Source: Minisyncoccia bacterium (GTDB lineage: Bacteria; Patescibacteriota; Minisyncoccia; UBA6257; GWB1-50-10). Taken from it: a DNA stretch of 64,000 nucleotides. Where the stretch lies: assembly GCA_049997815.1 (NCBI GenBank), contig JBEKVQ010000002.1, positions 10,483-74,482 on the forward strand. The letters run 5' to 3'. A program made the position numbers and the translations under genes. The notes below the pieces were generated by a model that saw nothing but the letters and a program-made list of their open reading frames with translations, had not been told where the DNA came from and ran no database searches. Each line of letters begins with the position of its first letter. Positions within the stretch are counted from its first letter, which is position 1. This document shows, one piece after another, positions 16,328 to 57,618 of this stretch.

Positions 16328-16372
16328 TGAAACCAAAATATCCATAGGCAAGCTATGGACATTTTGATTTGT

Positions 16373-16683
16373 GGAGATGGCGAGAATTGAACTCGCGTAC
16401 GGAACGATTCGGCAAACGTTTCTACAAGTTTATTCCCTCGGTTGCCCTTGGGACGGTTTTGCTTTCCTGTTTTAGCGAAGGATACGGAAAGCGGATCTCC
16501 TCCGCGAACTCACGATATGACACCGGTTGATCCCTAGTGAGTATCAGGGCCGATGCGGCATTACGCGAAGGCGAATGCCGGAGCTACCGTTTTGTTGGCA
16601 GTTATCTTAGAGGCCGTTTTAGTGAGCGGCCGCCTCAGCTTGCTGCGCCTGCGTCGTCTATCCCGTCGAAGCCGATCATCCCC
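16373..16683 (-). ncRNA. ssrA: tmRNA (ssrA), one-piece, about 311 nt, CCA not encoded
   Basis: Minus-strand 5' end GGGGAUGAUCGGCUUCGACGGGAUAGACG closely matches the tmRNA consensus (GGGGCUGAUUCUGGAUUCGACGGGAU in E. coli). 3' end GCGAG-UUCAAUU-CUCGC-CAUCUCC-A has a T-arm and an acceptor strand pairing with G3.U70. Internal reading frame GCC AAC AAA ACG GUA GCU CCG GCA UUC GCC UUC GCG UAA gives tag (A)NKTVAPAFAFA. Lies immediately downstream of smpB. Confidence 0.85.
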
Positions 16684-41818: not shown

Positions 41819-42112
41819 GCCGCGGTAGCTCAGTGGTAGAGCGCTACCCTAAACTCTTTGGGGCCTTCCGCAGTAATGTGGATTGAATAATTGGGTGAAT
41901 TCGGGGGAAACTTCTTAAAAGAAATAATCCCGAGCCAAGCTCTGATGGGATCCGTCAGTTGGCGGAGGTATCGGAGAAGGTGTAGAGACTAGTAGGTGAG
42001 TCCCAACGATAATCCTACGCAAGCGCCCAACTTCCTTTTAGAAGGAAGATGATATAGTCCAAGCAAACCTTGGAAGAGGTAGGCGTCGGGTGTTCGATTC
42101 ACCCCCGCGGCA
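41819..42112 (+). tRNA. tRNA-Phe (anticodon GAA) interrupted by a 222-nt group I intron in the anticodon loop
   Basis: 5' exon GCCGCGGUAGCUCAGUGGUAGAGCGCUACCCU (41819-41850). 3' exon GAAGAGGUAGGCGUCGGGUGUUCGAUUCACCCCCGCGGCA (42073-42112). The joined exons fold as a canonical tRNA that is very similar to E. coli tRNA-Phe. Confidence 0.75.
41851..42072 (+). ncRNA. group I (IC3-like) self-splicing intron
   Basis: Exon U33 precedes the 5' splice site, which can pair CCCU.GGGG with intron nt 10-13 (P1). The intron ends in G. Contains GAGCCAAGCU and AAGGUGUAGAGACUAGUAGG segments that closely match the P7/P3 cores of bacterial tRNA introns (for example Azoarcus/Anabaena). Confidence 0.7.
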
Positions 42113-42116
42113 CAAA

Positions 42117-43683: not shown

Positions 43684-43758
43684 GGTGCCTATGGTGTAAC
43701 GGTTAACACAGAAGTTTGTGGAACTTCTGATACGGGTTCGATTCCCGTTAGGCACCCA
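43684..43758 (+). tRNA. tRNA-His (anticodon GUG) with encoded G-1
   Basis: G-1 pairs with C73. Acceptor GUGCCUA/UAGGCAC; D-arm GUGU-AACGGUUA-ACAC; anticodon stem GAAGU/ACUUC with loop UUGUGGA; T-arm ACGGG-UUCGAUU-CCCGU. Confidence 0.85.
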
Positions 43759-43760
43759 GA

Positions 43761-43800
43761 TTGACAAATAGCACGAGGTGTGCTATTTTGTTTTCAGACA
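43761..43800 (+). promoter_or_regulatory. sigma-70-like promoter (TTGACA-17 nt-TATTTT) overlapped by a perfect 10-bp palindrome (CAAATAGCAC...GTGCTATTTG); candidate operator
   Basis: A near-identical 40-bp element recurs at 50250-50287 upstream of a second gene. Lies about 100 bp upstream of the REC-domain gene. Confidence 0.45.
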
Positions 43801-43897
43801 GGAACATTGTGTTTCCCTATGACAATTTTATAAGTACAAGTTAAACGAAAATTCTGATAGTCGAGAATAACCCTATAAACCAAAATGGAGGTTTTGT

Positions 43898-44674
43898 ATG
43901 CGTATTCTGATTGTTGATGATAGTGCTCTATGGATCAAGCATGGTAAGACCCTTCTCGAGCAAGCTGGCTATGAGGTGACGGGGTTGGTTGTCTCTGATC
44001 CCAAGCAGTTCACTTCGAAATCTCTGTCCGAGTCGGTGGCCGACGCGATCAAGGGGGTCGATGTGCTGATGATCGACAAGGATTTTGGTGAGGCCGTTAC
44101 CTCAACCCGTCTAATCTGTGTCGTTCGGCACAACTTCCCGAAACTTCCGATCGTCCGCTGGACCGGTGGGTACGATGACAAGCCGTACATGAATTATCTC
44201 GGTGTTACAAATATCGAGAAGCCCACCAAAAAGGATGAGGCCAAGTTCGTCGAGATCTTCAACGAGGCACTCGATAAGCAGAAGCTCATTCTCTCCGGCG
44301 CGATGGGGATATTCGCAGTGCTCGACGAGACGGTAGAACCCGACAAGTACGCGGCCGAAAACAAGGCAAGGCAGCTTAAGCAGATTGCCCAAATCGCCCA
44401 GTTGGCCAACAAAGATACCGTGGATTCGGACGATTGGAGGTATCCGTGGACGATCACTGGGGAACGCGCCGATATGACCAAGCACGAGTTTGGTCACTGT
44501 ATCTGCGACGGTATTCTCACAGCCGAAGATATTCGCCCCCATCTCTCTGCCTTGCAGAAGGTAATCGGAAAGTTTGAAGGCGCGGGTAAGATTGACGAGC
44601 GCTTCAAGATTTGTGCTGAGTTCATTAAGACTGGAAATCTGGACGAGCTCGAGCTAGTCCGGCGCTGTTACTGA
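43898..44674 (+). CDS. response-regulator receiver (REC) domain protein with an uncharacterised C-terminal domain
   Basis: MRILIVDDS...D.L..D phospho-acceptor pattern at the N-terminus. The C-terminal 130 aa have no recognisable HTH. No adjacent histidine kinase. Confidence 0.55.
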   Translation: MRILIVDDSALWIKHGKTLLEQAGYEVTGLVVSDPKQFTSKSLSESVADAIKGVDVLMIDKDFGEAVTSTRLICVVRHNFPKLPIVRWTGGYDDKPYMNYLGVTNIEKPTKKDEAKFVEIFNEALDKQKLILSGAMGIFAVLDETVEPDKYAAENKARQLKQIAQIAQLANKDTVDSDDWRYPWTITGERADMTKHEFGHCICDGILTAEDIRPHLSALQKVIGKFEGAGKIDERFKICAEFIKTGNLDELELVRRCY

Positions 44675-44885
44675 GATCGTTTTTAACGATGCAATAATCC
44701 TACCAGAGGGGAAAAATGAAACTCGATTACGGTTGAATACCTAACCGAACACTACGTGGAGCCCACTGCGTAGAAAGCAAAGACGAAAGTCATGAGCAAA
44801 AAGCCCGACAACAATGTTGGGCTTTGCTATTTCTGGTTATAACCAGATGAGATTTAACCTAGGTCCGGCGCACAGACCCGCTCTT

Positions 44886-44926
44886 TCTGCTGTATAATGG
44901 TTCTAACGTCCTCTACTACGCGACCC
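44886..44926 (+). repeat. array repeat copy R1 (TGTATAAT extended -10-like + core GGTTCTAACGTCCTCTACTACGCGACCC)
   Basis: One of 7 same-strand copies of the core found by eye (see findings). Confidence 0.6.
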
Positions 44927-44976
44927 AGCGATAAATCCAAGTATCTTTCAGGCATGGTCTGGTGTACCTTTAACGT

Positions 44977-45471
44977 ATGGGTGCAGATAAAAAAATTTTT
45001 CCAAACGTATGGTATGCCTCTGAGAAAAAGGTAAAAAGTGCCTCCAAATTTCTTGTCTTTAACGACAAGGGTTCGTTGGATTTCTCCGGAGAAAATATCC
45101 TATTTACAGGCAAGAAGAATACGATTCAAATCGGTAAATCAACCGTTAGGGGTATTTCCATGGTAAGCCAAGACATCAATTGGGTAACCTATATTATGAC
45201 GAACATTTTAGCCATAGCCGTATATTATTTTGTATTTACCTCCATATCTCATTTTGTATTCACTGGGGAAGACGTTGTCCTTTTAATTGTTTATTTTCTA
45301 ATCGCCAATGGATTTGGTTTATTGGTCGGTAAAAGCACTAAATGGATACTTGTCGAATATCTTGATAAGAACGGGAATCCGGGAAAGGCTTATTTTGCGG
45401 ATGGCTCAATGCGGGGATGGTCGGGTATATTCGGGGGGACGCGAAAAATCTACGATCTTATTAGGTCTTAA
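44977..45471 (+). CDS. hypothetical membrane protein
   Basis: Two central TM helices; no motif. Confidence 0.35.
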   Translation: MGADKKIFPNVWYASEKKVKSASKFLVFNDKGSLDFSGENILFTGKKNTIQIGKSTVRGISMVSQDINWVTYIMTNILAIAVYYFVFTSISHFVFTGEDVVLLIVYFLIANGFGLLVGKSTKWILVEYLDKNGNPGKAYFADGSMRGWSGIFGGTRKIYDLIRS

Positions 45472-45482
45472 AATACACCTTC

Positions 45483-45520
45483 GCTGTATAACAGTTCTAA
45501 CGTCCCCCACTACGCGACCC
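45483..45520 (+). repeat. array repeat copy R2 (GCTGTATAAC + core)
   Basis: Core GTTCTAACGTCCCCCACTACGCGACCC, located between convergent gene ends. Confidence 0.6.
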
Positions 45521-45562
45521 GGACAAAAAAACAATTTTCAATCAGCCAAAGAAACCTCTTCT

Positions 45563-46759
45563 CTACTTAGTGGTGTTATAGATGGCTTGGATCTCGGCGG
45601 CGGAGAGAGCGCGGTTGTAGATGCGGACGTCGTCGATAACTCCACTACCAAAGTCATCCCCTTTCCCAAAAAGAAGAGAACTTGTACTTGTATCAGTGAC
45701 ATATACCTGGGTACCGCTCGCTTTGAGCATTCCATTTAAATACCACGACCATATTGATCCTGAATAAGTAATGGTAAGAAAATTCCAAGATGTGGTGACT
45801 AAATTTGCCGCAGATGGACTAATATTATCTCTTTTATAGAGTATAGTACCGTTACTTATATAAAAAATTAAATATCCTTGCCCAGCAACACCCGAGTTCC
45901 CTTTGACAAGAATACCTGGATAACTGCCGATCAGTGTTATTTCCTTATACCAAAGCGAGATTGTAAAATCGGAATTTAATCGAAGGGTCAAGTTATCGGG
46001 AACGGACACATAATCATCCGTCCCATCGAAATTCCCCGCCTGTCCAATCTTGCCTCCCGTATAGTAGGAACCGTTGGTCAGAGAGCCATACCACGTCCCA
46101 TTGTTTCCGTTCCCAGATGAGTCATTGGGAGAGCCATCCAAAGGCCAGTAACCCACAAGTCCAGAGGTATTGAATAATGGTGATAAGGAAAGATTAGAAC
46201 CATAGGCTATGACTCCAGGCATATTCTGTATGGGAGGGTTGATCTGGAGGGCGGCCCGCTGTTTCTGTGATTCAGGAATAGCCGTCAGTTCCCAAGAGCC
46301 TCCTGATGTGTAGGTGTAGTACTGTCCGCTTGAGGTGGTATTTATGGGATCAATGGGAAGCCTGGAGAGAGGACTTCCGGATGAGATGAGGGTGAAGTTC
46401 ACAGGGATCCATCCTGTGCCGTCGACTCTCGAGGAGGAGGCGGTGGAAACGCAGGCGTATGCCCAGCCTGAAGGCAATGCGGGAAGGCCTAAGTTCGCAC
46501 AGGTAGGTGACGTGTCCGGAACTGACACATAGGTCGTTGAGGCGGTTCCGAGGGATTGGTTGTACTGGTCGACCTGGAAGAGATTGAGGGCACTGTTCAA
46601 GGACGCCAGATCGGAGAGACGAGTGGAGTCTCTAGCTTCTTTGAGGAGCTCAGCAGGATTGATGACGAGGATGACGGCGGTAGCCAAGACTCCGAGGATG
46701 GCTATCACTACCAGGAGCTCTATGAGGGTGAAGGAGGACTCGTTACGCCAGCTTGTCAT
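45563..46759 (-). CDS. type IV pilin-like protein with a C-terminal LamG/concanavalin-like domain
   Basis: N-terminal prepilin motif FTLIELLVVIAILGVLA. The C-terminal about 200 aa have a LamG-like pattern (...WYLNGML...DDVRIYNRALSAAEI). Confidence 0.7.
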   Translation of the reverse strand: MTSWRNESSFTLIELLVVIAILGVLATAVILVINPAELLKEARDSTRLSDLASLNSALNLFQVDQYNQSLGTASTTYVSVPDTSPTCANLGLPALPSGWAYACVSTASSSRVDGTGWIPVNFTLISSGSPLSRLPIDPINTTSSGQYYTYTSGGSWELTAIPESQKQRAALQINPPIQNMPGVIAYGSNLSLSPLFNTSGLVGYWPLDGSPNDSSGNGNNGTWYGSLTNGSYYTGGKIGQAGNFDGTDDYVSVPDNLTLRLNSDFTISLWYKEITLIGSYPGILVKGNSGVAGQGYLIFYISNGTILYKRDNISPSAANLVTTSWNFLTITYSGSIWSWYLNGMLKASGTQVYVTDTSTSSLLFGKGDDFGSGVIDDVRIYNRALSAAEIQAIYNTTK

Positions 46760-46819
46760 ATCTTGTTATTCTACATTGTCCTGATTCTGAACGTATACGC
46801 TCACGTTCGGTACGCAAAT

Positions 46820-46909
46820 CCTTCCCTCCAACCTTCTAACCACAGTTCTAACGTCCTCTACTACGCGACCTACCCAAAATTATCCCGATAGAATTAGGAC
46901 GGTTTTTTG
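46820..46909 (+). repeat. array repeat copy R3 (long form: CTCCCTCCAACC box + core + CCAAAATTATCC + degraded hairpin + T-run)
   Basis: Shares about 110 bp of collinear similarity with R4. Confidence 0.6.
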
Positions 46910-47008
46910 TCTCCGAGTGGGACGATGCCGGAACGAAAATTGAGGTGGGGAAATAAAAAACCGCCCTGCGATTTCGTAGGGCGATTCTGGTTAATTGATA
47001 AAGATAAA

Positions 47009-47470
47009 TCAATGACGGAATGAATTGAATTCGGCAACATGTTTAATGTATGCATCCCTGTCAAAAAACTTTACAATCGCATCGCGAAGTTTTTGAGAGG
47101 TCATACCGAATTGCTTCAACGTTTCAGGTGAAGATGTAATCTCCTTACTCTTCCCTTCATAATCATTGAAGTCATACACATATAATCCTTGAGGTCCAAC
47201 GCAGAGATTCGTCCCAAAACCTCCAAATGGGGTTTTTTCGCCTTCCCTAAGTGTAGCAATCGCCCCACCATTTGAAAGCTGTGCAAACTCTTGAATTTCG
47301 CGATCAGTATTAACCGACCGAAGAAATTCTTGAAACGATTCGTCATCTTTTGCGTCAAACCGTACTGCAGAATATCGCGTCTTTATAGCGTCAATGAGCT
47401 CATAAATCCTCATGGGTATTCTCCGTGCCGCGCTCCTCAATTCAAAACGATGTTTCAATTTGCTAATCAT
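47009..47470 (-). CDS. hypothetical protein
   Basis: Start taken at the internal Met (MISKLKHRF). No motif. Confidence 0.35.
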   Translation of the reverse strand: MISKLKHRFELRSAARRIPMRIYELIDAIKTRYSAVRFDAKDDESFQEFLRSVNTDREIQEFAQLSNGGAIATLREGEKTPFGGFGTNLCVGPQGLYVYDFNDYEGKSKEITSSPETLKQFGMTSQKLRDAIVKFFDRDAYIKHVAEFNSFRH

Positions 47471-47632
47471 ATGTGTCTCCTTCCCTTTTAGTTTGAAATG
47501 TACAGCTATTCTCAGTTTTCTAAATGTCAAAACTATAGCATGTGATTAGGCCAATGTCAAGGAACTATTTTCTGAGAGTTCACCTGAGATAGTTCTTTAT
47601 CTCGCCAAATATGGCACGCAAATCCTTCTAAA

Positions 47633-47992
47633 TCAAAATCCACCTAAGCCACCCAGATCGCTGCTTGTTGCCTGCTGGACCGCATTACTCAGCCATCGTT
47701 CCAAAATCACGAAACCTACCACTAGTGAGACTGCGGTGAGAACAATAATGATAATGCCGACTCGCCGTGCAGGCGGATATGAGCTGCGGACATACTTCAT
47801 GCCAGGCCAGAGACCAAGTGGTGGGAGGAAAATACTTAATAGATAAAGGCTGGTTTGCGCGAGCCAAGTCGTCGAGGGTGGTTTCTCTTTAAGATTCTTT
47901 CCGCAATTCGCACAGAAATACCATTCAGGAGAAATAGTTTGATGACACTGCGGGCAGAGAGATTGCATTTGCGGGAGATCCATAGAATCCAT
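47633..47992 (-). CDS. zinc-ribbon membrane protein
   Basis: CPQCHQ...CANCGK followed by two TM helices. Confidence 0.4.
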   Translation of the reverse strand: MDSMDLPQMQSLCPQCHQTISPEWYFCANCGKNLKEKPPSTTWLAQTSLYLLSIFLPPLGLWPGMKYVRSSYPPARRVGIIIIVLTAVSLVVGFVILERWLSNAVQQATSSDLGGLGGF

Positions 47993-48117
47993 TTTAACAT
48001 CAAGAGAGAGTCGAAAACAGTCTTATAGAGTGAAGTTGACTTCACTAGAAACCTCGGATATCGGGTGGTATATTGGCGTCAGTAAATCCACAATTTCACC
48101 AGAAAGGAGAATAGGGT

Positions 48118-48321
48118 ATGGCACAAAGGATAAGGAACACCGAAGAAAAGAAGAATGCAGAAATCATCAGAGCCGCGAATAAGGCGAGAAAGTCCTTTTT
48201 TGCCAATCAGGAGAAGACCGTTATAACCAAACTCAAAAAGGATGGTGCTTCCGAAGAAGTGATTCAAAAAATGAAAATCTTCATCGCACAGGGAATGACA
48301 ATCACCGGTGACGGCTGGTGA
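48118..48321 (+). CDS. small hypothetical protein (67 aa)
   Basis: AGGAGAAUAGGG ribosome-binding site 6 nt upstream; Lys-rich. Confidence 0.3.
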   Translation: MAQRIRNTEEKKNAEIIRAANKARKSFFANQEKTVITKLKKDGASEEVIQKMKIFIAQGMTITGDGW

Positions 48322-48357
48322 ACAATCCCTTTCCTAAGAAAAGCGAGAGGGAGCAAG

Positions 48358-48393
48358 AGCGGCCACGCGAGCAATCGGCGTGGCTCTTTATTT
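48358..48393 (+). terminator. terminator-like hairpin (GCCACGC-gagcaaucg-GCGUGGC followed by UCUUUAUUU)
   Basis: Inverted repeat after the small ORF. Confidence 0.4.
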
Positions 48394-48400
48394 CCCCAAA

Positions 48401-48490
48401 CCCCTCCCTCCAACCTCCCAATCTCAGTTCTAACGTCTTCCACTACGCGACCCATCCAAAATTATCCTGATAAAATCAGGATAATTTTTG
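48401..48490 (+). repeat. array repeat copy R4 (long form with perfect 10-bp hairpin AUUAUCCUGA-uaaaa-UCAGGAUAAU followed by UUUU)
   Basis: Core GTTCTAACGTCTTCCACTACGCGACCC. Confidence 0.6.
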
Positions 48491-48527
48491 TACTCCAGAT
48501 GGGGACATTTTGTTATACAATGAGTCC

Positions 48528-49154
48528 ATGAACCAAAAAGGATTCGCGCCAATTGTCGTCTTTCTCATCCTCTTGGGAATTCTCGTGGTTGGCGGGGGAG
48601 CGTGGTATTTATCCTCGAAAAACGTTCCGCCGCAGTCGGCTACTTCGGGACCTCAAACAGCAACCACTGCCAGCTCACAACCTCAGGACGCAACAGCTAA
48701 TTGGCCAGTACATACTGATGCAGCAAATGGATTTGAAATAAAATACCCAGCTGATTTTCCTGTCGAAGTGCTTGAAAGTAAGGATTTATCAGTCGATTTA
48801 CCCGGAACTTTTGGTGGTCGCTTCACTTATCAAGAGAACGCCCCCATCTCTTCGTCAACAACCGGAAGGGTCGCTTCCGAGACCGTGGGGGACTTCACAA
48901 TTGATTACTGGGCTCAATATGGAGGAATGGGATCCTGGGACACTGTAATTAACGCCTGGACAAAGCGGAATGGAAACTACTATATTATTTCTCTCAACCA
49001 CGAGTTTATATCCGGGGCCCCAGGTTTTACTCCCGACGTAACGGAAACTACATTGATTAGTAAGGCACTGAGTAATATGCATGACGGCACTAACACGTAT
49101 GTGAATATATTCCATCAAATCCTTTATACTTTCAGATTTGTTAATCCAAGCTAG
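48528..49154 (+). CDS. secreted/anchored hypothetical protein
   Basis: Start at MNQKGFAPIVVF (signal anchor), then a Ser/Thr/Gln-rich linker. Confidence 0.4.
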   Translation: MNQKGFAPIVVFLILLGILVVGGGAWYLSSKNVPPQSATSGPQTATTASSQPQDATANWPVHTDAANGFEIKYPADFPVEVLESKDLSVDLPGTFGGRFTYQENAPISSSTTGRVASETVGDFTIDYWAQYGGMGSWDTVINAWTKRNGNYYIISLNHEFISGAPGFTPDVTETTLISKALSNMHDGTNTYVNIFHQILYTFRFVNPS

Positions 49155-49162
49155 GCACACAA

Positions 49163-49267
49163 ACCTCCCCCCCCCGTATCACAGTTCTAACGTCCCTGCC
49201 TGCCGGCAGGCAGGCTTCACTACGCGACCCAAAGAAGATAACCCTGATTTATCAGGGTTGTTTTTAT
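49163..49267 (+). repeat. array repeat copy R5 (core split by a 20-bp perfect palindrome TGCCTGCCGGCAGGCAGGC; followed by hairpin AACCCUGA-uuua-UCAGGGUU and UUUUU)
   Basis: Core halves GTTCTAACGTCCC ... TCACTACGCGACCC. Confidence 0.6.
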
Positions 49268-49301
49268 ATCCTAAACGGAGTTCGATGTGCCTAACCTTGG
49301 G

Positions 49302-50066
49302 TTACCTGCTCTTCTTGTCTTCTTGAAGCATCTCAAGAGCCTCTTTTACGGTCGTCATAAACTGGGCGGGGAAAATGATCGTAGAATTCTTTTCCGTGGC
49401 AATTTCCGCCATTGTTTGGAGTGTACGAAGCTGGAGCGCGACTGGATGACTGGCAATGATATCAGCTGCTTGCCCTAATTTTTCAGCCGCCTGAAATTCA
49501 CCCTGCGCGGCAACGATCTTTGCCCGACGCTCACGTTCAGCTTCAGCCTCCTTTGCCATAGCGCGCTGCATGTTTTCCGGGAGCGTGACATCCTTAATCT
49601 CAACGGCGGTCACCTGAATGCCCCACGGCTCCGTGTGAACGTCGATCACGTTCTTTATTTTTTCGTTGATATCGATTGTCTGCGACAAGAATTGGTCGAG
49701 CATGAATTGACCCACGACGTTCCTGACCGTCGTTTGGCTAATCTGATTCACGGCATCGTGGACATTCTCAATCGCCACCACGGATTTCTGAGAGTCTACG
49801 ACGTGGTAGTAGGCGACTGCCGCTATATCTATCGAAACGTTGTCTTTCGTGATGATTTTCTGCGAAGGGATGTTCATGGTAACAGTCCGAAGTCCAACCC
49901 TTACCATTCTTTCAAAAATCGGGACGACGAAGATAAGTCCTGGACCACGTGTACCAACGAGACGGCCCAATCGGAAGATGACCCCGCGCTGATACTCTGT
50001 TATCACCTTTATTCCCAAAATCAGAAGGACGACGATGATGAGCACGATATACGTTAGGATATCCAT
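49302..50066 (-). CDS. SPFH/band-7 (stomatin/prohibitin-like) membrane protein
   Basis: N-terminal TM helix followed by an SPFH domain (...[24 protein letters not shown]...); C-terminal coiled coil [14 protein letters not shown]. Confidence 0.8.
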
Positions 50067-50195
50067 ACGTTCATAATATGCTACTAACGAATTTTAACAA
50101 TAGGGAAATCATTGACGCCTACTCCTTCTCTAAGATAGATCCCAACTTCGTCCCACTCGCAGAGGTGGTTTAGTCCATTCCAGGAACACAAACCA

Positions 50196-50243
50196 TTCTC
50201 TCCAACCCCCCAATCACATTTCTAACATCCCCCACTACGCGAC
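50196..50243 (+). repeat. array repeat copy R6 (CTCCAACCCCCCAATCACA + core variant TTTCTAACATCCCCCACTACGCGACCC)
   Basis: Followed immediately by the palindromic promoter element. Confidence 0.55.
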
Positions 50244-50249
50244 CCAATG

Positions 50250-50287
50250 TATTGACAAATAGTACAGAAATGTGCTATTCTGTTTTC
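50250..50287 (+). promoter_or_regulatory. second copy of the TTGACA-18 nt-TATTCT promoter with the CAAATAG...CTATTCTG palindrome
   Basis: Matches 43761-43800 over about 38 of 40 positions. Lies 45-80 bp upstream of gene 50331. Confidence 0.45.
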
Positions 50288-50330
50288 AGCTAATCAACCG
50301 GATTTTGACAACTAACGAGCGGAGGCAAAT

Positions 50331-51125
50331 ATGTTCCGACAATACAGAAAATGGTTGGTTGTTATTCTGGCAGTCACGCTGGGTGTATTACTTACCATTC
50401 ACCACAACAAGATTCTCGAAGAAAAGAGTTTGGTGAAGATGGCGGCTCTGTCGATCCCATCCAATGTAATCCTCGTTGAGACGGAGAACTTCATCCAACC
50501 GTTTCTAGGAAAGACCCTCATCGAGGTTCCTGTGAGCGAAGAATTCCTGCGGAATGCAAACGGTACGGTGTACTACAAGGTGTATACCCGTCAACCTGCG
50601 TTCAATGGTATTCATGATTGGATTCGCCTGTTCAGTATTCAGGGCGACGAGGTCACTTACAGCGACTGGGACAGCAGGGATGAAATTGTGGCGGTTATCC
50701 CGAATACGGCGGGTCTGCAGATCTACCGATACGAATTCCGTTACGAAAAGTATCTGTTTTGGTCCTGGCTGGCACCTATTCTTTGTTTCGGATTTGCTTG
50801 TGTCGCTCTATATTATTGCGTTCGCATAAGCAATCGGACGTCGAAAGGAAAGTCATTGCCATGCCCGACCCCAGGTTGTGGGGGTACGGCTTTTGATACC
50901 GGCAGAATCTATGACGAATCAATATTCTCGTTGGGTTTACCGATCTATCGGTGTCCAAAATGCCTTGGGAGAGGATTACTGCTCCACGATGGAGAAATAG
51001 ACAGATTCCTCTACGAATCGGGGGGTATCTACTTTTTCAACTTCCTTACGAGGATTTGGAGAAGATTCGTGAGGGCATGTTCTTTCGTTCTCAGATTTCC
51101 TTCTTTATCTAAATCAGGAACGTAG
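50331..51125 (+). CDS. hypothetical membrane protein with a C-terminal zinc-ribbon (CPTPGCGG ... CPKC)
   Basis: N-terminal TM helix, central TM helix, and a Cys cluster. Confidence 0.35.
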   Translation: MFRQYRKWLVVILAVTLGVLLTIHHNKILEEKSLVKMAALSIPSNVILVETENFIQPFLGKTLIEVPVSEEFLRNANGTVYYKVYTRQPAFNGIHDWIRLFSIQGDEVTYSDWDSRDEIVAVIPNTAGLQIYRYEFRYEKYLFWSWLAPILCFGFACVALYYCVRISNRTSKGKSLPCPTPGCGGTAFDTGRIYDESIFSLGLPIYRCPKCLGRGLLLHDGEIDRFLYESGGIYFFNFLTRIWRRFVRACSFVLRFPSLSKSGT

Positions 51126-51216
51126 TCAGGTGTCTACAAACATCAGGACCGAGCAGACCAACTGCTCCCGCATCGCCACCTCGGTATGGTGGCATTTTTA
51201 TTTCCCCAGATCCGGC

Positions 51217-51310
51217 ACACAACCCCCCCTTCAAATCCAGTATCATGGTTCTAACGCCTGCCTGCGCCATGCCTGCGTATGCAGGAGACAGGTCCTCTAC
51301 TACGCGACCC
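51217..51310 (+). repeat. array repeat copy R7 (core split by a 37-bp insertion containing the palindrome CCTGCGTATGCAGG)
   Basis: GGTTCTAACGCC ... TCTACTACGCGACCC. Confidence 0.55.
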
Positions 51311-51360
51311 AATTTATACAATACCCCCGCTAGCTGTGAGTTTTTTATTTTGTCGATGAT

Positions 51361-52104
51361 GTGGGGTTGTATTATGATGTTACTGGTAATTCAATTGAAT
51401 ACTGCCGTTTCATGCCAAATACAATCGATAAAATCTCCGTAGTAATCCCGGTTTTTAATGAAGCCGATACAATAGATGTTTTGCTTCGCAGGGTGAAAAA
51501 CGTTCCGGTTGTGGAAGAAATAATCGTCGTTGACGACTGTTCAACCGACGGGACGAGGGAGATCCTCGCGGAGCTCAAAGAGAAAATCGGTTTTAAACTT
51601 GCGTTTCACGATAAGAATCGGGGGAAGGGAGCATCAATAAGAACCGGTCTAAATCACGTTATGGGTGATTATGTCGTTATTCAGGATGCGGATTTTGAAT
51701 ATAATCCCGAAGAATATCGCATTTTGATCGATTCCATTGGGAAAAATGGAGCAGATATCGTGTTCGGTTCGCGGTTTCTCGGCCAAGCAATCAAGATACC
51801 GTTTTTATATAATGCAGGGAACAGATTCTTAACATCCATCACGAACTTATTTTTTGGTTCGGAGCTGACCGACATGGAGACGTGCTACAAGCTTCTGCCC
51901 GTTAGTTTTCTTAAAACAATCGAACTCGAATCCGACCGTTTTGATTTTGAACCGGAAATCACGGCCAAAATACTGAAATCCGGCCTCAAAATCAAGGAAG
52001 TCCCCATAAGTTATTCAAGCAGAAGCAAGAAGGAAGGTAAAAAACTGACCTGGAAAGACGGCCTTTCGGCGGTTAGAACTCTGTTTAAATGTCGATTTAA
52101 TTAA
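51361..52104 (+). CDS. family-2 glycosyltransferase (dolichyl/polyprenyl-phosphate sugar synthase-like)
   Basis: SVVIPVFNE...VVDDCSTDGT...DAD GT-A motifs; about 247 aa. Confidence 0.8.
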   Translation: MGLYYDVTGNSIEYCRFMPNTIDKISVVIPVFNEADTIDVLLRRVKNVPVVEEIIVVDDCSTDGTREILAELKEKIGFKLAFHDKNRGKGASIRTGLNHVMGDYVVIQDADFEYNPEEYRILIDSIGKNGADIVFGSRFLGQAIKIPFLYNAGNRFLTSITNLFFGSELTDMETCYKLLPVSFLKTIELESDRFDFEPEITAKILKSGLKIKEVPISYSSRSKKEGKKLTWKDGLSAVRTLFKCRFN

Positions 52105-52117
52105 TATCTAGCATCGC

Positions 52118-53794
52118 GTGGATAATAAGAAAATAAAAAGAAACTTATTACGCACTCTATTCATTGTCGGTCTATTGGCAATCGGCATTTTCATTTTCTT
52201 TCGGCCGATGATTTTGTCCGGCTTCCGATATTCCCAGCAGGATACCGGCGACTCCGTATTTAACAATCTCCTTCTCGAGCATTCTTTTCAGGTCGTTTTC
52301 AATCACTCGTATCTTGGTACCGCATGGTCCCCGATATTTTACTATCCCCAGGGAAATGTTTTGGCGTACTCCGATAATTTGTGGGGCAGTGCGCCGATTT
52401 ATTGGCTCGCCAGGGCTTTTTTCACTCCTGAGACGGCATTTCAAATCTGGATGATTGTTGTTGCCATCTTAAATTTTTTCGCCTTTTATCTTTTGGCACG
52501 GAGCTTGAAAATGAATACTTGGTTTTCCGGTTTTGGTTCGTTTCTTTTCGCTTTTTGCCTGCCCCGTTTGGGGCAAATAGGACATCAGCAGCTTTTGCCC
52601 CAATTCTATTCGGCACTCGCCCTGTTCTTTCTGTTCAAGTTCATTCAGGAGAAAAAGTTCAAACACTTTTTGTTTTTTGAGATCTGTGTTTATCTTCAGG
52701 TCCTGGCTGGTATATATTTGGGCTGGTTTCTCCTACTCTCCTTGCCCGTTTTAATTCTCGTCGGCAAACTTTTCTACAAAGATAAGTTCTCCCTTAGACC
52801 GTTTTTGGATTACAGAATATTGATATCGGTTCTAGTATTTTTTGCCGTTTTGGCGGTTACCCTTTCCCCTTATTATTCCGCGCAAAAAGAAATCGGCCCA
52901 CGTTCCTATAGCGAGGTGGAGACACTGATTCCCGGCGTTCGCTCTTACGTGAATATCGCTTCAACCAGCATTTTGTACAATCTCTATCCGCCACAATTGG
53001 AAACTGCGACACAGAACATTCCGGTGAGATACGAGAATTATTTATTTTTGGGATTCTTCGTTTACTTTTTACTTTTGGTCTCCATTGTCGGGTTCGTTCT
53101 TATCCGTAGAAAATATCCGGATAAAACTTTCTGGCCGCCATCTTTCGTCGTCGGCTTCACACTCTTCGCCATCATTACGCTCATATCCCTGCGAATACCT
53201 TTCACCGATTACAGCTTTTGGGTGAACGTTTATAAATTCGTTCCCGGCGCCGGAGCCATCCGCGCGGTGATTAGGGCTTGGACCATCTCTTATCTGTTTC
53301 TATTTCTGGCAATCATGGGTTTGGCTTCCTTGGTTTATTCGAGATCCTCATCAAGGATTTTCAAGGTGCTTCTGGTGGCAATCGGATTGATTGCCTGTCT
53401 TGAACAAATAGATATCAACCCCCGTTATTTTGATCTGGCTAAAGAGCGGGTAATCCAGACCCAGATAGAACAGGCGGTCTCCGCGGCGGTGCGGGAAAAC
53501 AAGATAGATGCCTTTTATCTGCGGTGGGGCGAGAATCAATGGTTCTTTGACTACGAATTGAAAGCGATGTGGGCTAGTATGGATCTGAACGTTCCCACCA
53601 TTGACGGTTATACCGGAAATCTTCCCATGGGATATAAGAGCCTGGTTGATACACTTAGCGACCGCGACATCAGCGACTGGCTGAGGTTTAAAGGTGTGAC
53701 CCCGCTGTCCCGGAAAATACTAATCCTTGATTCCTCGGTTAACGGAGAGGAATTTACGATAGATAAAGCAGAGATTTTGTCTCTGCCCTTTTAG
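52118..53794 (+). CDS. large polytopic membrane protein, possibly a GT-C-type glycosyltransferase partner of the preceding GT2
   Basis: More than 10 TM helices in the N-terminal 400 aa and a soluble C-terminal domain. The functional call is from gene context only. Confidence 0.35.
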   Translation: MDNKKIKRNLLRTLFIVGLLAIGIFIFFRPMILSGFRYSQQDTGDSVFNNLLLEHSFQVVFNHSYLGTAWSPIFYYPQGNVLAYSDNLWGSAPIYWLARAFFTPETAFQIWMIVVAILNFFAFYLLARSLKMNTWFSGFGSFLFAFCLPRLGQIGHQQLLPQFYSALALFFLFKFIQEKKFKHFLFFEICVYLQVLAGIYLGWFLLLSLPVLILVGKLFYKDKFSLRPFLDYRILISVLVFFAVLAVTLSPYYSAQKEIGPRSYSEVETLIPGVRSYVNIASTSILYNLYPPQLETATQNIPVRYENYLFLGFFVYFLLLVSIVGFVLIRRKYPDKTFWPPSFVVGFTLFAIITLISLRIPFTDYSFWVNVYKFVPGAGAIRAVIRAWTISYLFLFLAIMGLASLVYSRSSSRIFKVLLVAIGLIACLEQIDINPRYFDLAKERVIQTQIEQAVSAAVRENKIDAFYLRWGENQWFFDYELKAMWASMDLNVPTIDGYTGNLPMGYKSLVDTLSDRDISDWLRFKGVTPLSRKILILDSSVNGEEFTIDKAEILSLPF

Positions 53795-53819
53795 CGCGGG
53801 CGCTTTTGTTGGATAATAT

Positions 53820-54533
53820 TTGAATATGGCACTTTCGGATAAACAAATTTTGGAGGAGATGAAAGGGGGTGATATTTCCATTCACCCCTTCAACCGAGCC
53901 AATCTCAGTACTTCGAGTTACGATGTGACACTAGGTAAATACTACTTCCGGGAAAGAGGCTCGAAGTATCACATGCCTATCTACAACATTTGGAGCAAGG
54001 CCCACACGGACCATGTCTGGGGCACCAAGCCGTTCGTTGCGGAATCGGCGGAGAAAGTTTTCAAGAAACTTAATTTCTCATGGACGGGTCTTTCGCCGGA
54101 GGACAAGATAATTCTCCTCGATCCGGGAGAGACGATTCTCGCCCACACCAACGAATTCATCGGCGGCAGGAATCACGTTACCACTATGATGAAGGCGCGT
54201 TCCTCGATGGGAAGGAACTTCATCGAGGTGTGCAAATGCGCCGGCTGGGGAGACGTGGGGTACGTGAATCGCTGGACGATGGAGATAACGAACAATTCTT
54301 CGCACTATGCGATACCGCTCGTGGTGGGCAGGCGCATTGCGCAGATAATATTCTTCGAAACCGGGCCGATCTTGGGCAGCGATTACACGAAGAGCGGCAA
54401 GTACGGCAAGAGTGCCGATTTGAAAGAAACGATAAGGAATTGGAAGCCGAAGATGATGCTTCCGAAGTTGTATGAGGATAGAGACATAAAAACCGGGAAG
54501 GTTTCCGAGAAAAGAAATTCGCGGAGGGTATGA
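53820..54533 (+). CDS. dCTP deaminase / dUTPase-family protein
   Basis: NLSTSSYDVTLG and GYVNRWTMEITN motifs typical of the dCTP deaminase fold. Longer than usual at 237 aa. Confidence 0.65.
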   Translation: MNMALSDKQILEEMKGGDISIHPFNRANLSTSSYDVTLGKYYFRERGSKYHMPIYNIWSKAHTDHVWGTKPFVAESAEKVFKKLNFSWTGLSPEDKIILLDPGETILAHTNEFIGGRNHVTTMMKARSSMGRNFIEVCKCAGWGDVGYVNRWTMEITNNSSHYAIPLVVGRRIAQIIFFETGPILGSDYTKSGKYGKSADLKETIRNWKPKMMLPKLYEDRDIKTGKVSEKRNSRRV

Positions 54534-56460: not shown

Positions 56461-57618
56461 ATGAAGCCGAAAAGGATATATCTGGATTTTGCCGCTTCAA
56501 CACCAACGGACCCGGCGGTAGTGAAGGCGATGATGCCCTATTTTACGGAAGAGTTTGGAAACCCCGGTTCGTTGCATTCTTTCGGACAGGAAGCGCAGGG
56601 TGCGGTGGACAAAGCCCGCGAGTCGGTTGCGAAGGCGATTGGCGCAGATTTCCGGGAAGTGATTTTTACGGGGTCGGCGACGGAAGCAAACAACCTCGTT
56701 TTACGCGGGGTGACCGGGGCGGCACGACCCATCAGGCCAAAAATCATTATTAGTAGCATTGAACACGAATCGATTCTAGATACCGCGAGAGATTTGGAGA
56801 AAGACGCCTGCCTGCGCAGGCAGGGTGTGGAGATGGTTTATATCCCGGTGGACAAAAAGGGCATTGTCGACATTGAGAAAATAAAAGACGCATTGGACGG
56901 ACGAACCACTCTCGTTTCTGTAATGTACGTGAATAACGAGATCGGAAGCATCCAGCCCATTCAGGAAATTTCCAGACTAATCAAGAATTCCGGCGGGCAC
57001 GCGCTCCTACATACGGACGCCGCTCAGGCATTTAACTATTTTGATTGTAATGTTAAAAAACTCGGCGTGGATTTAATGACGCTTTCCGGGCAGAAAATTT
57101 ACGGTCCCAAGGGAATCGGGGCTCTGTATGTCGGTAAATCCGCGCAGGAAAAATTAAAACCCATCGTCACCGGGGGCGGACAGGAGTTCGGATTGCGTTC
57201 CGGCACCGAAAACGTTGCGGCTATCGTCGGTTTCGGGAAGGCAGTTGAACTGGCGGAAAAAAGCAGGAGTAAGAATACGAAAGAGGTCAAAGCACTCAAG
57301 GATTATTTCTGGCGCGGGCTCAAGAAATTCTATCCGCAGGCCGAGATGAATGGCGATTCAAAAGCACCCCATATCCTGAACGTTTATTTTCCCACGGAGT
57401 ATGCTGGCGACCTGCTCGTAAAGCTCGATATTGCCGGCGTGGCCGCTTCCGCCGGTTCGGCCTGCTCGGCCCGGTCTTATGCTCCGTCCCCGGTCCTCCA
57501 GGCACTCGGGCTTTCGCAAGAACGGGTGCGGGGAAGCTTGCGGTTCAGTTTCGGAAAAACCCTGAAAACTGAGGATATGAAAAGGGCGTTGAAACAAATT
57601 GAGGGAGTTATTCGTTAA
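56461..57618 (+). CDS. cysteine desulfurase (class V aminotransferase, IscS/NifS-like)
   Basis: YLDFAASTP N-terminus, PLP-lysine region SGQKIYGPKGIGALYV and the C-terminal SAGSACS active-site Cys loop. Confidence 0.85.
   Translation: MKPKRIYLDFAASTPTDPAVVKAMMPYFTEEFGNPGSLHSFGQEAQGAVDKARESVAKAIGADFREVIFTGSATEANNLVLRGVTGAARPIRPKIIISSIEHESILDTARDLEKDACLRRQGVEMVYIPVDKKGIVDIEKIKDALDGRTTLVSVMYVNNEIGSIQPIQEISRLIKNSGGHALLHTDAAQAFNYFDCNVKKLGVDLMTLSGQKIYGPKGIGALYVGKSAQEKLKPIVTGGGQEFGLRSGTENVAAIVGFGKAVELAEKSRSKNTKEVKALKDYFWRGLKKFYPQAEMNGDSKAPHILNVYFPTEYAGDLLVKLDIAGVAASAGSACSARSYAPSPVLQALGLSQERVRGSLRFSFGKTLKTEDMKRALKQIEGVIR

Follow-up and report, generated by a model that had tools for sequence, protein, structure and literature searches.

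The 64,000-nucleotide stretch analysed here, called the window throughout (contig JBEKVQ010000002.1 of the Minisyncoccia bacterium assembly GCA_049997815.1, positions 10,483 to 74,482), carries downstream of its tRNA-His gene an array of seven co-oriented repeat units, R1 to R7, separated by small and unrelated genes. With about even confidence, we read these units as attachment (att)-like recombination joints of an additive island that was seeded at tRNA-His and is made of cassettes of one to three genes. The observations that carry this reading are the architecture of the units, their linkage to and co-orientation with tRNA-His, the homology between their flanks and the tRNA-His flank, breakpoints at the repeat core in other genomes, and the variable, unit-less islands of relatives. 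Patescibacteria, the candidate phyla radiation (CPR) bacteria, have tiny genomes; to our knowledge, descriptions of mobile elements in them are few, and the ways in which they acquire and exchange accessory genes, for example those for pilins and membrane proteins, are poorly understood. A conserved recombination module that is linked to tRNA-His and recurs across several of the phylum's classes would offer a concrete and testable mechanism for genome plasticity.

Architecture of the repeat units and their link to tRNA-His

A search of the window with a 26-nt core pattern, allowing up to 3 mismatches, returned five copies compared to 0.00 expected from 100 shuffles, and searches with the half-cores ACTACGCGACC and GTTCTAACGYC found all seven units, R6 only at 2 mismatches. 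All seven cores are on the + strand, within positions 44900-51309; in the remaining 57 kb of the window, pattern searches and nhmmer on both strands gave no additional unit. An earlier description made from the letters of the window alone (the sequence-only reading) had proposed seven same-strand copies, and every one is confirmed, the coordinates it gave being those of the start of a longer upstream part. An eighth, degenerate copy, R0, is followed by a terminator hairpin (44800-44825). The units, and the tRNA-His features with which they are compared, are as follows.

43685-43757, + strand: tRNA-His(GTG) gene, called by ARAGORN and Rfam.
43761-43797, + strand: terminator-like flank after tRNA-His (ATTGACAAATAGCAC...GTGCTATTTTGTTTTCAG), homologous to the R6 core flank.
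44731-44766, + strand: R0, degenerate, read from sequence as GGTT[GAATAC]CTAAC CGAAC ACTACGTG[GA]GCCCA.
44886-44927, + strand: R1, core 44900-44925, spacer GTCCTCT, nhmmer E = 5.5e-10.
45483-45521, + strand: R2, core 45494-45519, spacer GTCCCCC, between convergent gene ends.
46806-46912, + strand: R3, core 46845-46870, with C-rich upstream box, CCAAAATTATCC box and U-run.
48387-48492, + strand: R4, core 48427-48452, with TTTATTTCCCCA and C-rich box.
49150-49265, + strand: R5, core 49184-49229, terminator 49240-49259.
50183-50289, + strand: R6, core 50219-50244, TTTCTAACATCC variant, downstream flank homologous to the tRNA-His flank.
51197-51345, + strand: R7, final unit of the array, core 51248-51309, hairpin insert of about 34 nt.

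The full modular unit spans about 70-110 bp and comprises a loosely conserved upstream part, the core and, usually, a terminator-like flank. The core has the form (A/G)GTTCTAAC, 7 variable nt, ACTACGYGACCC(CA). The conserved core described in the sequence-only reading is real, but it is not one block: two invariant halves, (G)TTCTAAC and ACTACGCGACC, flank the variable 7-mer, and in R5 and R7 this region holds G+C-rich hairpin inserts (49195-49214 and about 51259-51292, respectively), the R5 core being interrupted by a perfect palindrome, CCTGCCTGCC/GGCAGGCAGG. The modules listed in that reading likewise exist, but each in a subset of units only: the upstream CTCCCTCCAACC box is confined to R3, R4 and R6, the TATAAT-like hexamer to R1, R2, R5 and R7, and the 3′ CCAAAATTATCC box to R3 and R4, R5 having a variant related to it. 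Every unit is intergenic, with R2 and R5 between convergent gene ends as had been stated. The search for dyad symmetry within the units found none; they are non-palindromic and modular, again as described. In minimum-free-energy folds the cores are unpaired and z-scores are unremarkable except at the terminators. A hairpin followed by a U-run is present in four of the seven units of the window (that of R4 at 48458-48488, hairpin z = -4.6), and none of the Rfam 15 covariance models matched the units, whether with gathering thresholds or with E values allowed up to 10.

G+C-rich palindromes (CCTGCCTGC..GCAGGCAGG) lie inside the cores of R5 (49195-49214) and R7 (51259-51277), and a palindrome similar to these inserts occurs within the Aminotran_5 gene (56804-56827). 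In the unit of L109 (L numbers denote the loci and contigs compared with the window), GTTCT is followed by a different insert, 27 nt long; it seems that the middle of the core readily takes up insertions. A further motif, TTTATTTCCCCA(A/G)A, is found directly behind intrinsic terminators, in L109 as well: it starts the extended units R4 (48387-48398, +) and R7 (51197-51208, +), and occurs once on the - strand (46946-46962), behind the terminator of a 173-aa gene.

The upstream and downstream classes of unit parts occur in mosaic combinations among R1 to R7. R3 and R4 have both parts in common, R6 joins an upstream part of the R3/R4 type to a flank of the tRNA-His type (84% identical to the flank of unit L080-C), and R5 and R7 share their upstream type with different flanks.

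The link to tRNA-His takes several forms. In all eight loci that hold both features (the window, L075/L110, L109, L043/L070, L085, L087, L082 and L071), tRNA-His lies upstream of the units and is co-oriented with them. In the window, the flank of tRNA-His is about 87% identical to 50251-50289 and to the L080-C flank (local alignment, 39 columns). The tRNA-His region of L043 can be aligned with the unit across 66 nt, beginning at CAAC, passing ...ACCCCA and reaching the terminator's end, and the terminator behind tRNA-His in L085 is about 95% identical to that behind unit 1 of L089, which is another genome. As for the core, it resembles a T-loop, an acceptor 3′ strand and C73-CCA; tRNA-His gave the best match among the 3′ ends of the tRNAs tested, by a small margin and with two indels needed. 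One copy in L088 is a hybrid, in which the unit-like GTTCTGAAC is followed by the tRNA-His-like CCCATATGCCACCC. tRNA-His is the anchor of the island and points in the same direction as all units. Since the array is anchored in this way, and its units are related to the tRNA-His 3′ end and terminator, clearly in the flanks and weakly in the core, it falls in the class of tRNA-seeded islands with att repeats; the sequence-only reading could match the architecture to nothing described, and no Rfam family fits it, but it is not unprecedented.

Units and breakpoints in other Patescibacteria

Pattern scans of public genomes and metagenomes yielded 41 distinct units in 27 Patescibacteria loci. These scans also gave many chance matches, the clear set being Patescibacteria and Saccharibacteria contigs, often with several units each; the family was found only in Patescibacteria contigs. 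In the eight contigs with multiple copies, all 26-28 units are co-oriented within their contig, an arrangement with a chance probability of about 2^-18. The lineages span 29-49% G+C, and across them the units keep an A at position -7 (37 of 41), (A/G)G TTCTAAC, 7 pyrimidine-rich variable nt, ACTACGYGACC, C(C)A and then an A-rich stretch. Three loci of one lineage, L071, L078 and L083, carry a 68-74-nt unit that is about 95% identical among them and lies between stretches of unrelated DNA, indicating that the unit is a discrete module. Strict terminator criteria single out 17 of the 41 units, and Saccharibacteria-type copies have no nearby terminators. Three copies are decayed (R0, copy 2 of L088 and L109). 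The pattern GTTCTAAC-N7-ACTACGYGACC can serve as a sequence marker for finding such islands. A literature search for the core sequence returned only unrelated primers.

Comparisons between related contigs, among them pairs of 99-100% identity that give way to unrelated DNA precisely there, place breakpoints at the core. L075 and L110, taken from separate data sets, agree at 100% identity for 2407 nt, as far as ...ACTACGCGACCC, beyond which they are unrelated. Conversely, L075 and L080 are identical rightwards from the core and different leftwards, the last difference lying inside the 7-mer. In the third pair, L088 and L089, 91.5% identity begins at ...ACC| of the core, and the cassettes that precede this point have no similarity, even by tblastx.

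A DedA protein encoded in the window is 100% identical to one that NCBI assigns to a Minisyncoccia bacterium, and relatives include Candidatus Brennerbacteria. In the syntenic relatives (DedA 62-79% identical in L100-L108), Cob_adeno_trans, MgtC, NUDIX and DedA are conserved, in the order HtrA, SIMPL, Aminotran_5, NUDIX, MgtC, Cob_adeno_trans ... tRNA-His, DedA, Pterin_4a. None of L100-L108 has a unit, and the content between Cob_adeno_trans or MgtC and tRNA-His is different in each, Cob_adeno_trans directly adjoining tRNA-His in L104. The corresponding part of the window is the following.

43758-54529, no single strand: variable island between tRNA-His and the conserved Cob_adeno_trans, without homologues in L100-L109.

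Because the window proteins encoded in this interval have no homologue in the syntenic relatives L100-L109, we consider the array, which occupies 7.6 kb, to be the tRNA-proximal part of a variable island of 10.8 kb. Comparison of orthologous loci, a check suggested in the sequence-only reading, gave relatives that lack units and differ in island content; the only array indel within the population of the window (see below) is not bounded by two cores.

Proposed recombination at the core and its alternatives

If the units are recombination joints, segments of one to three genes plus one unit would be added, lost or swapped by recombination, with the crossover falling within the core, in the 15 nt TCTACTACGCGACCC. 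The partner would be a further unit or else the 3′ end of tRNA-His, which is related to it (...CACCC(CA) and its terminator). Each event would leave a complete hybrid unit on either side. An incoming segment that landed beside the tRNA would supply tRNA-His with a terminator, and a terminator would stand behind each core because any segment may come to adjoin tRNA-His. Such recombination would account for the polarity of the units, their anchoring to tRNA-His, the exchange of flanks and the mosaic units, as well as for the patchy presence of units among relatives and the lack of bias in gene orientation. We infer that the exchange is enzyme-catalysed and site-specific and that the cassettes pass through a circular intermediate. 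A recombinase that acted in trans on a non-palindromic site defined by its sequence would set the system apart from integrons and from classical tRNA-targeting integrative elements.

The sequence-only reading had proposed a cassette or recombination system whose recombinase lies elsewhere. In outline, the evidence supports this idea: breakpoints fall at the core, units are mosaic and no recombinase is encoded in the array, but the array is stable in the sampled population. Pfam searches of the array proteins detected no recombinase and no Phage_integrase match, and tblastn searches of the 64-kb window with two recombinases, the serine enzyme of L087 and the Xer-like one of L043, gave no match, so a recombinase near the array, which that reading had proposed to look for, did not turn up. 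Two candidate enzymes come from other loci, where they occupy the corresponding position at tRNA-His. The first is a large serine recombinase (Resolvase, Recombinase and Zn_ribbon_recom domains) encoded at 11127-12740 of L087, whose open reading frame (ORF) reads through the terminator into tRNA-His; L071 retains only a C-terminal remnant of such an enzyme (16-504). Nucleotide homology between L087 and L071 starts exactly at GGTTCTAACC, about 55 nt behind tRNA-His; this 10-mer shares the 5′ half of the unit and is at the same time the coding sequence for KRLEP, which is conserved in the recombinase. As the right ends of the L087 and L071 elements could not be mapped, the link to large serine recombinases stays a lead. 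The second candidate is a 305-aa Xer-like tyrosine recombinase, encoded immediately upstream of tRNA-Arg/tRNA-His in L043 (1633-2547) and L085 (1531-2445), a lineage with a single unit about 470 nt behind tRNA-His. Either enzyme might act on the units; neither link is proven.

Several observations weigh against recombination joints. The core lacks the dyad symmetry expected of sites for tyrosine or serine recombinases, and both core halves are perfectly kept in R5 and R7 despite inserts that would be expected to inactivate a recombination site. No recombinase is linked to the units: a Pfam census of 125 neighbouring ORFs showed no enriched family, and all-against-all clustering of the neighbours grouped only DedA (by synteny), Peptidase_S51 and SPFH, the last two recurring between lineages at just 29-45% identity and thus giving no sign of recent transfer. 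On these grounds, we rejected the idea of a linked protein family. Classical att repeats are near-exact partial tRNAs; the core is no copy of the 3′ end of the resident tRNA-His, against which, with two indels, it scores barely above other tRNAs. The tRNA-His linkage is not universal, since L008 has no tRNA within 3.6 kb upstream and L074 has tRNA-Glu. In principle, chimeric assembly could also produce breakpoints at a repeat, but the shared stretch is only 15-26 nt, far below the final k of these assemblies.

Population data point the same way. The array is identical in about ten contigs from several samples that are at least 99.97% identical to the window. The sole indel within it is in L095, where 44732-47537 (2806 bp), comprising R0 to R3 and three genes, is absent, leaving an empty site without a unit. 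The left end of the missing segment is the exact start of R0. The right end (...AAAACTATAG|) resembles the stretch just upstream of a core, but is a non-unit site between the -35 and -10 elements of the minus-strand promoter of the 173-aa gene, with no homology at the junction. As this sole variant is not bounded by two cores, excision of cassettes within the population was rejected; we take the L095 polymorphism to be no more than suggestive.

Among known systems, the closest counterparts are islands seeded by a tRNA gene in which successive integrations have left several att copies that are partial tRNAs (bioRxiv 10.1101/2020.12.28.424599). They include the tycheposon-type islands of Prochlorococcus and the tandem accretion of integrative elements and of integrase-less remnants resembling cis-mobilizable elements (CIMEs). 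The island described here similarly adjoins a full-length tRNA and grows away from it, with several direct, co-oriented att-type repeats, unrelated cargo in either direction, segments that mostly lack an integrase, and content that varies among relatives. It differs in that its repeat is a distinct consensus shared by distant Patescibacteria lineages and not a near-exact copy of the resident tRNA, in its very small segments, in the terminator-like flank that each repeat carries, in the lack of dyad symmetry and in the lack of an integrase in the island or the 64-kb window.

With integrons (attI, attC and IntI), the array has in common short, mostly single-gene cassettes with co-oriented site-like repeats between them, a primary site at the array head (here the tRNA-His 3′ end) and swaps exactly at the site boundary. 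In contrast to integrons, it shows neither the imperfect-palindrome attC structure (R''-L''...L'-R') nor an adjacent IntI gene or cassette promoter (Pc), its cassette genes face both directions, and its repeats are conserved in sequence rather than structure. Elements that exploit Xer and dif sites (arrays of integrative mobile elements exploiting Xer, IMEX, and pdif modules) also lack a recombinase of their own and have two conserved arms around a variable spacer, and an Xer-like gene does lie beside tRNA-Arg/tRNA-His in L043 and L085. The arms of the unit, GTTCTAAC and ACTACGYGACC, are nevertheless unrelated to each other and to dif, are not partially palindromic, and measure 9 and 11 nt around a 7-nt spacer compared to 11-6-11; nor is there a switch in GC skew.

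A stronger form of the recombination reading is an integron-like system specific to Patescibacteria, with the tRNA-His 3′ end as primary site, a sequence-conserved, non-palindromic cassette-borne site of about 70 nt, a recombinase encoded elsewhere in the genome and a terminator travelling with each unit. We consider this doubtful. If such a system existed, the terminator of the unit, and possibly a short transcript, would keep tRNA-His expression intact after insertions, and the system would provide a general route of gene gain in reduced genomes.

The second proposal of the sequence-only reading, that the repeats are genes for small RNAs (sRNAs) of about 60 nt, is possible but secondary, and we regard it as unlikely. 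Each unit would start with a promoter, continue with about 25-30 nt of conserved, C/U-rich and unstructured 5′ sequence (UUCUAAC...ACUACGYGACCCCA) and close with an intrinsic terminator, giving a product of about 55-70 nt that would act in trans, for example by base-pairing or as a mimic of the 3′ end and trailer of tRNA-His; such a family, once in a variable region, could incidentally provide homology for recombination. The conserved A at -7, the -10-like hexamer at -8 to -3 and the A-rich TAAACA box 17 nt farther upstream speak for such genes, as does the co-orientation of the units with the leading strand, judged from GC skew. A hairpin and U-run are present within 70 nt in at least 17 of the 41 units, including those with unrelated flanks (L071, L078 and L083), and also in units that already stand behind an upstream terminator (R4 and R7); in addition, a bipartite single-stranded RNA would tolerate the hairpin inserts of R5 and R7. 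However, sigma-70-like scores upstream of the units barely exceed random (6.85/12 vs. 6.0), keeping in mind that the sigma-70 consensus may not be that of this phylum; only 2 of 39 units reach 9 or more, R3, R4 and R6 score 5-6, and a promoter scan of the window called none at the units. The terminators are homologous to those of tRNA-His and need not signal an independent transcription unit, and they are missing near the Saccharibacteria-type copies. The lack of an Rfam match also counts against such genes, which would explain neither the linkage to tRNA-His nor the strict polarity, the patchy occurrence in close relatives or the core breakpoints.

Alternatively, the units could be passive repeats, that is, diverged duplicates of the 3′ end and terminator of tRNA-His that have no dedicated enzyme and merely provide short homology for RecA-dependent or microhomology-mediated exchange, for instance after natural transformation, with gene conversion keeping them uniform. 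The mosaic units with crossovers inside the conserved 15-26 nt, the lack of a linked recombinase and the decayed copies would all fit. We nevertheless hold this to be quite improbable: stretches of 15-26 nt do not exceed the minimum length that efficient homologous recombination usually requires, and the core halves are near-invariant across lineages of 29-49% G+C whose tRNA-His 3′ ends differ, whereas the flanks diverge freely, which argues for sequence-specific selection rather than drift and conversion.

Directly repeated rolling-circle nick sites for an HUH enzyme, with initiation at one unit, termination at the next and release of single-stranded cassette circles, are very improbable. The 3′ half of the core, CTACTACG(YG)ACC(CC), resembles the nick sequence of the pMV158 family, TACTACG/AC, part of the dso (double-strand origin) GGGGCTACTACGACC (PMC1851628, PMC9569500), so that ACTACG...ACC(CC) is common to both. 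Strand polarity is another shared trait, the units being strictly confined to one strand and non-palindromic, and the hairpins of R5 and R7 lie just 5′ of ACTACG. The match, however, holds only if 2 nt are inserted at the nick position, in most units a hairpin that could expose the site in its loop is missing, and there is no counterpart of the inverted repeat I (IR-I) hairpin, the bind-locus repeats or the Rep gene. No Rep or HUH protein is among the commonest families of the 125 neighbouring ORFs or in the window array, the unit pattern had 0 matches in viral contigs, BLAST of the unit gave only chance-level matches in a phage collection and none in a plasmid collection, and the tRNA-His linkage would be unexplained. 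The same searches led us to reject a viral, phage or plasmid origin of the units.

The remaining candidates could be set aside briefly. A tRNA 5′ half on the minus strand, suggested by scan matches to Planctomycete tRNA-Val genes, lacks D-stem pairing and a 3′ partner and was not called by ARAGORN; the reverse complement resembles a tRNA 5′ half because of the likeness of the plus strand to an acceptor 3′ strand. We rejected a CRISPR (clustered regularly interspaced short palindromic repeats), riboswitch, ribozyme or known sRNA for lack of an Rfam match and of a conserved fold, a small ORF because there is no start codon and the indels are out of frame, and the 3′ end of transfer-messenger RNA (tmRNA) as a model for the unit because there is no similarity. 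Repetitive extragenic palindromes (REP), miniature inverted-repeat transposable elements (MITE) and bacterial interspersed mosaic elements (BIME) do not fit non-palindromic copies that are all on one strand and within 6.6 kb of a 64-kb window. A promoter of the extracytoplasmic function (ECF)-sigma or T7-like type was rejected on reasoning only, given its wrong spacing and the interruption by the R5 and R7 inserts.

Cargo genes and other features of the window

Between the units lie very short segments of 0.6-1.6 kb, each holding one to three genes. The ORF list and Pfam confirm the description of this stretch in the sequence-only reading as one of small, unrelated genes in both directions, including a LamG pilin, zinc-ribbon, SPFH/stomatin and membrane proteins. 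GC skew is positive throughout the window, with no switch at the locus.

43898-51125, both strands: cargo genes between units (ORF list, Pfam and gene calls on identical contigs).
Cargo, first part: 258-aa protein (+), 164-aa protein (+), LamG pilin of 398 aa (-), 173-aa protein (-).
Cargo, second part: zinc-ribbon protein of 119 aa (-), 67-aa protein (+), 214-aa protein (+), SPFH protein of 254 aa (-), 264-aa protein (+).

Upstream of tRNA-His, the tRNA-Phe(GAA) gene (41820-42113) carries a group I intron in its anticodon loop (Rfam Intron_gpI, 41841-42082, 69 bits). It was missed by ARAGORN, and tRNA-Phe is intron-less in all syntenic relatives examined. The population variant L090 (ENA ERZ27250144; q 490-2807) has a 2318-bp insertion at window positions 42109-42114, the 3′ end of this tRNA-Phe, that encodes an HNH_5 protein of 344 aa, a 225-aa protein and an HTH_3 protein; this genome therefore has another small mobile element that targets the 3′ end of a tRNA. 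L090-L093, which are all the contigs of the same population that span 59285/59286, have 33 bases more than the window at that point. Finally, a tmRNA gene at 16369-16683 (-) encodes the tag peptide ANKTVAPAFAFA.

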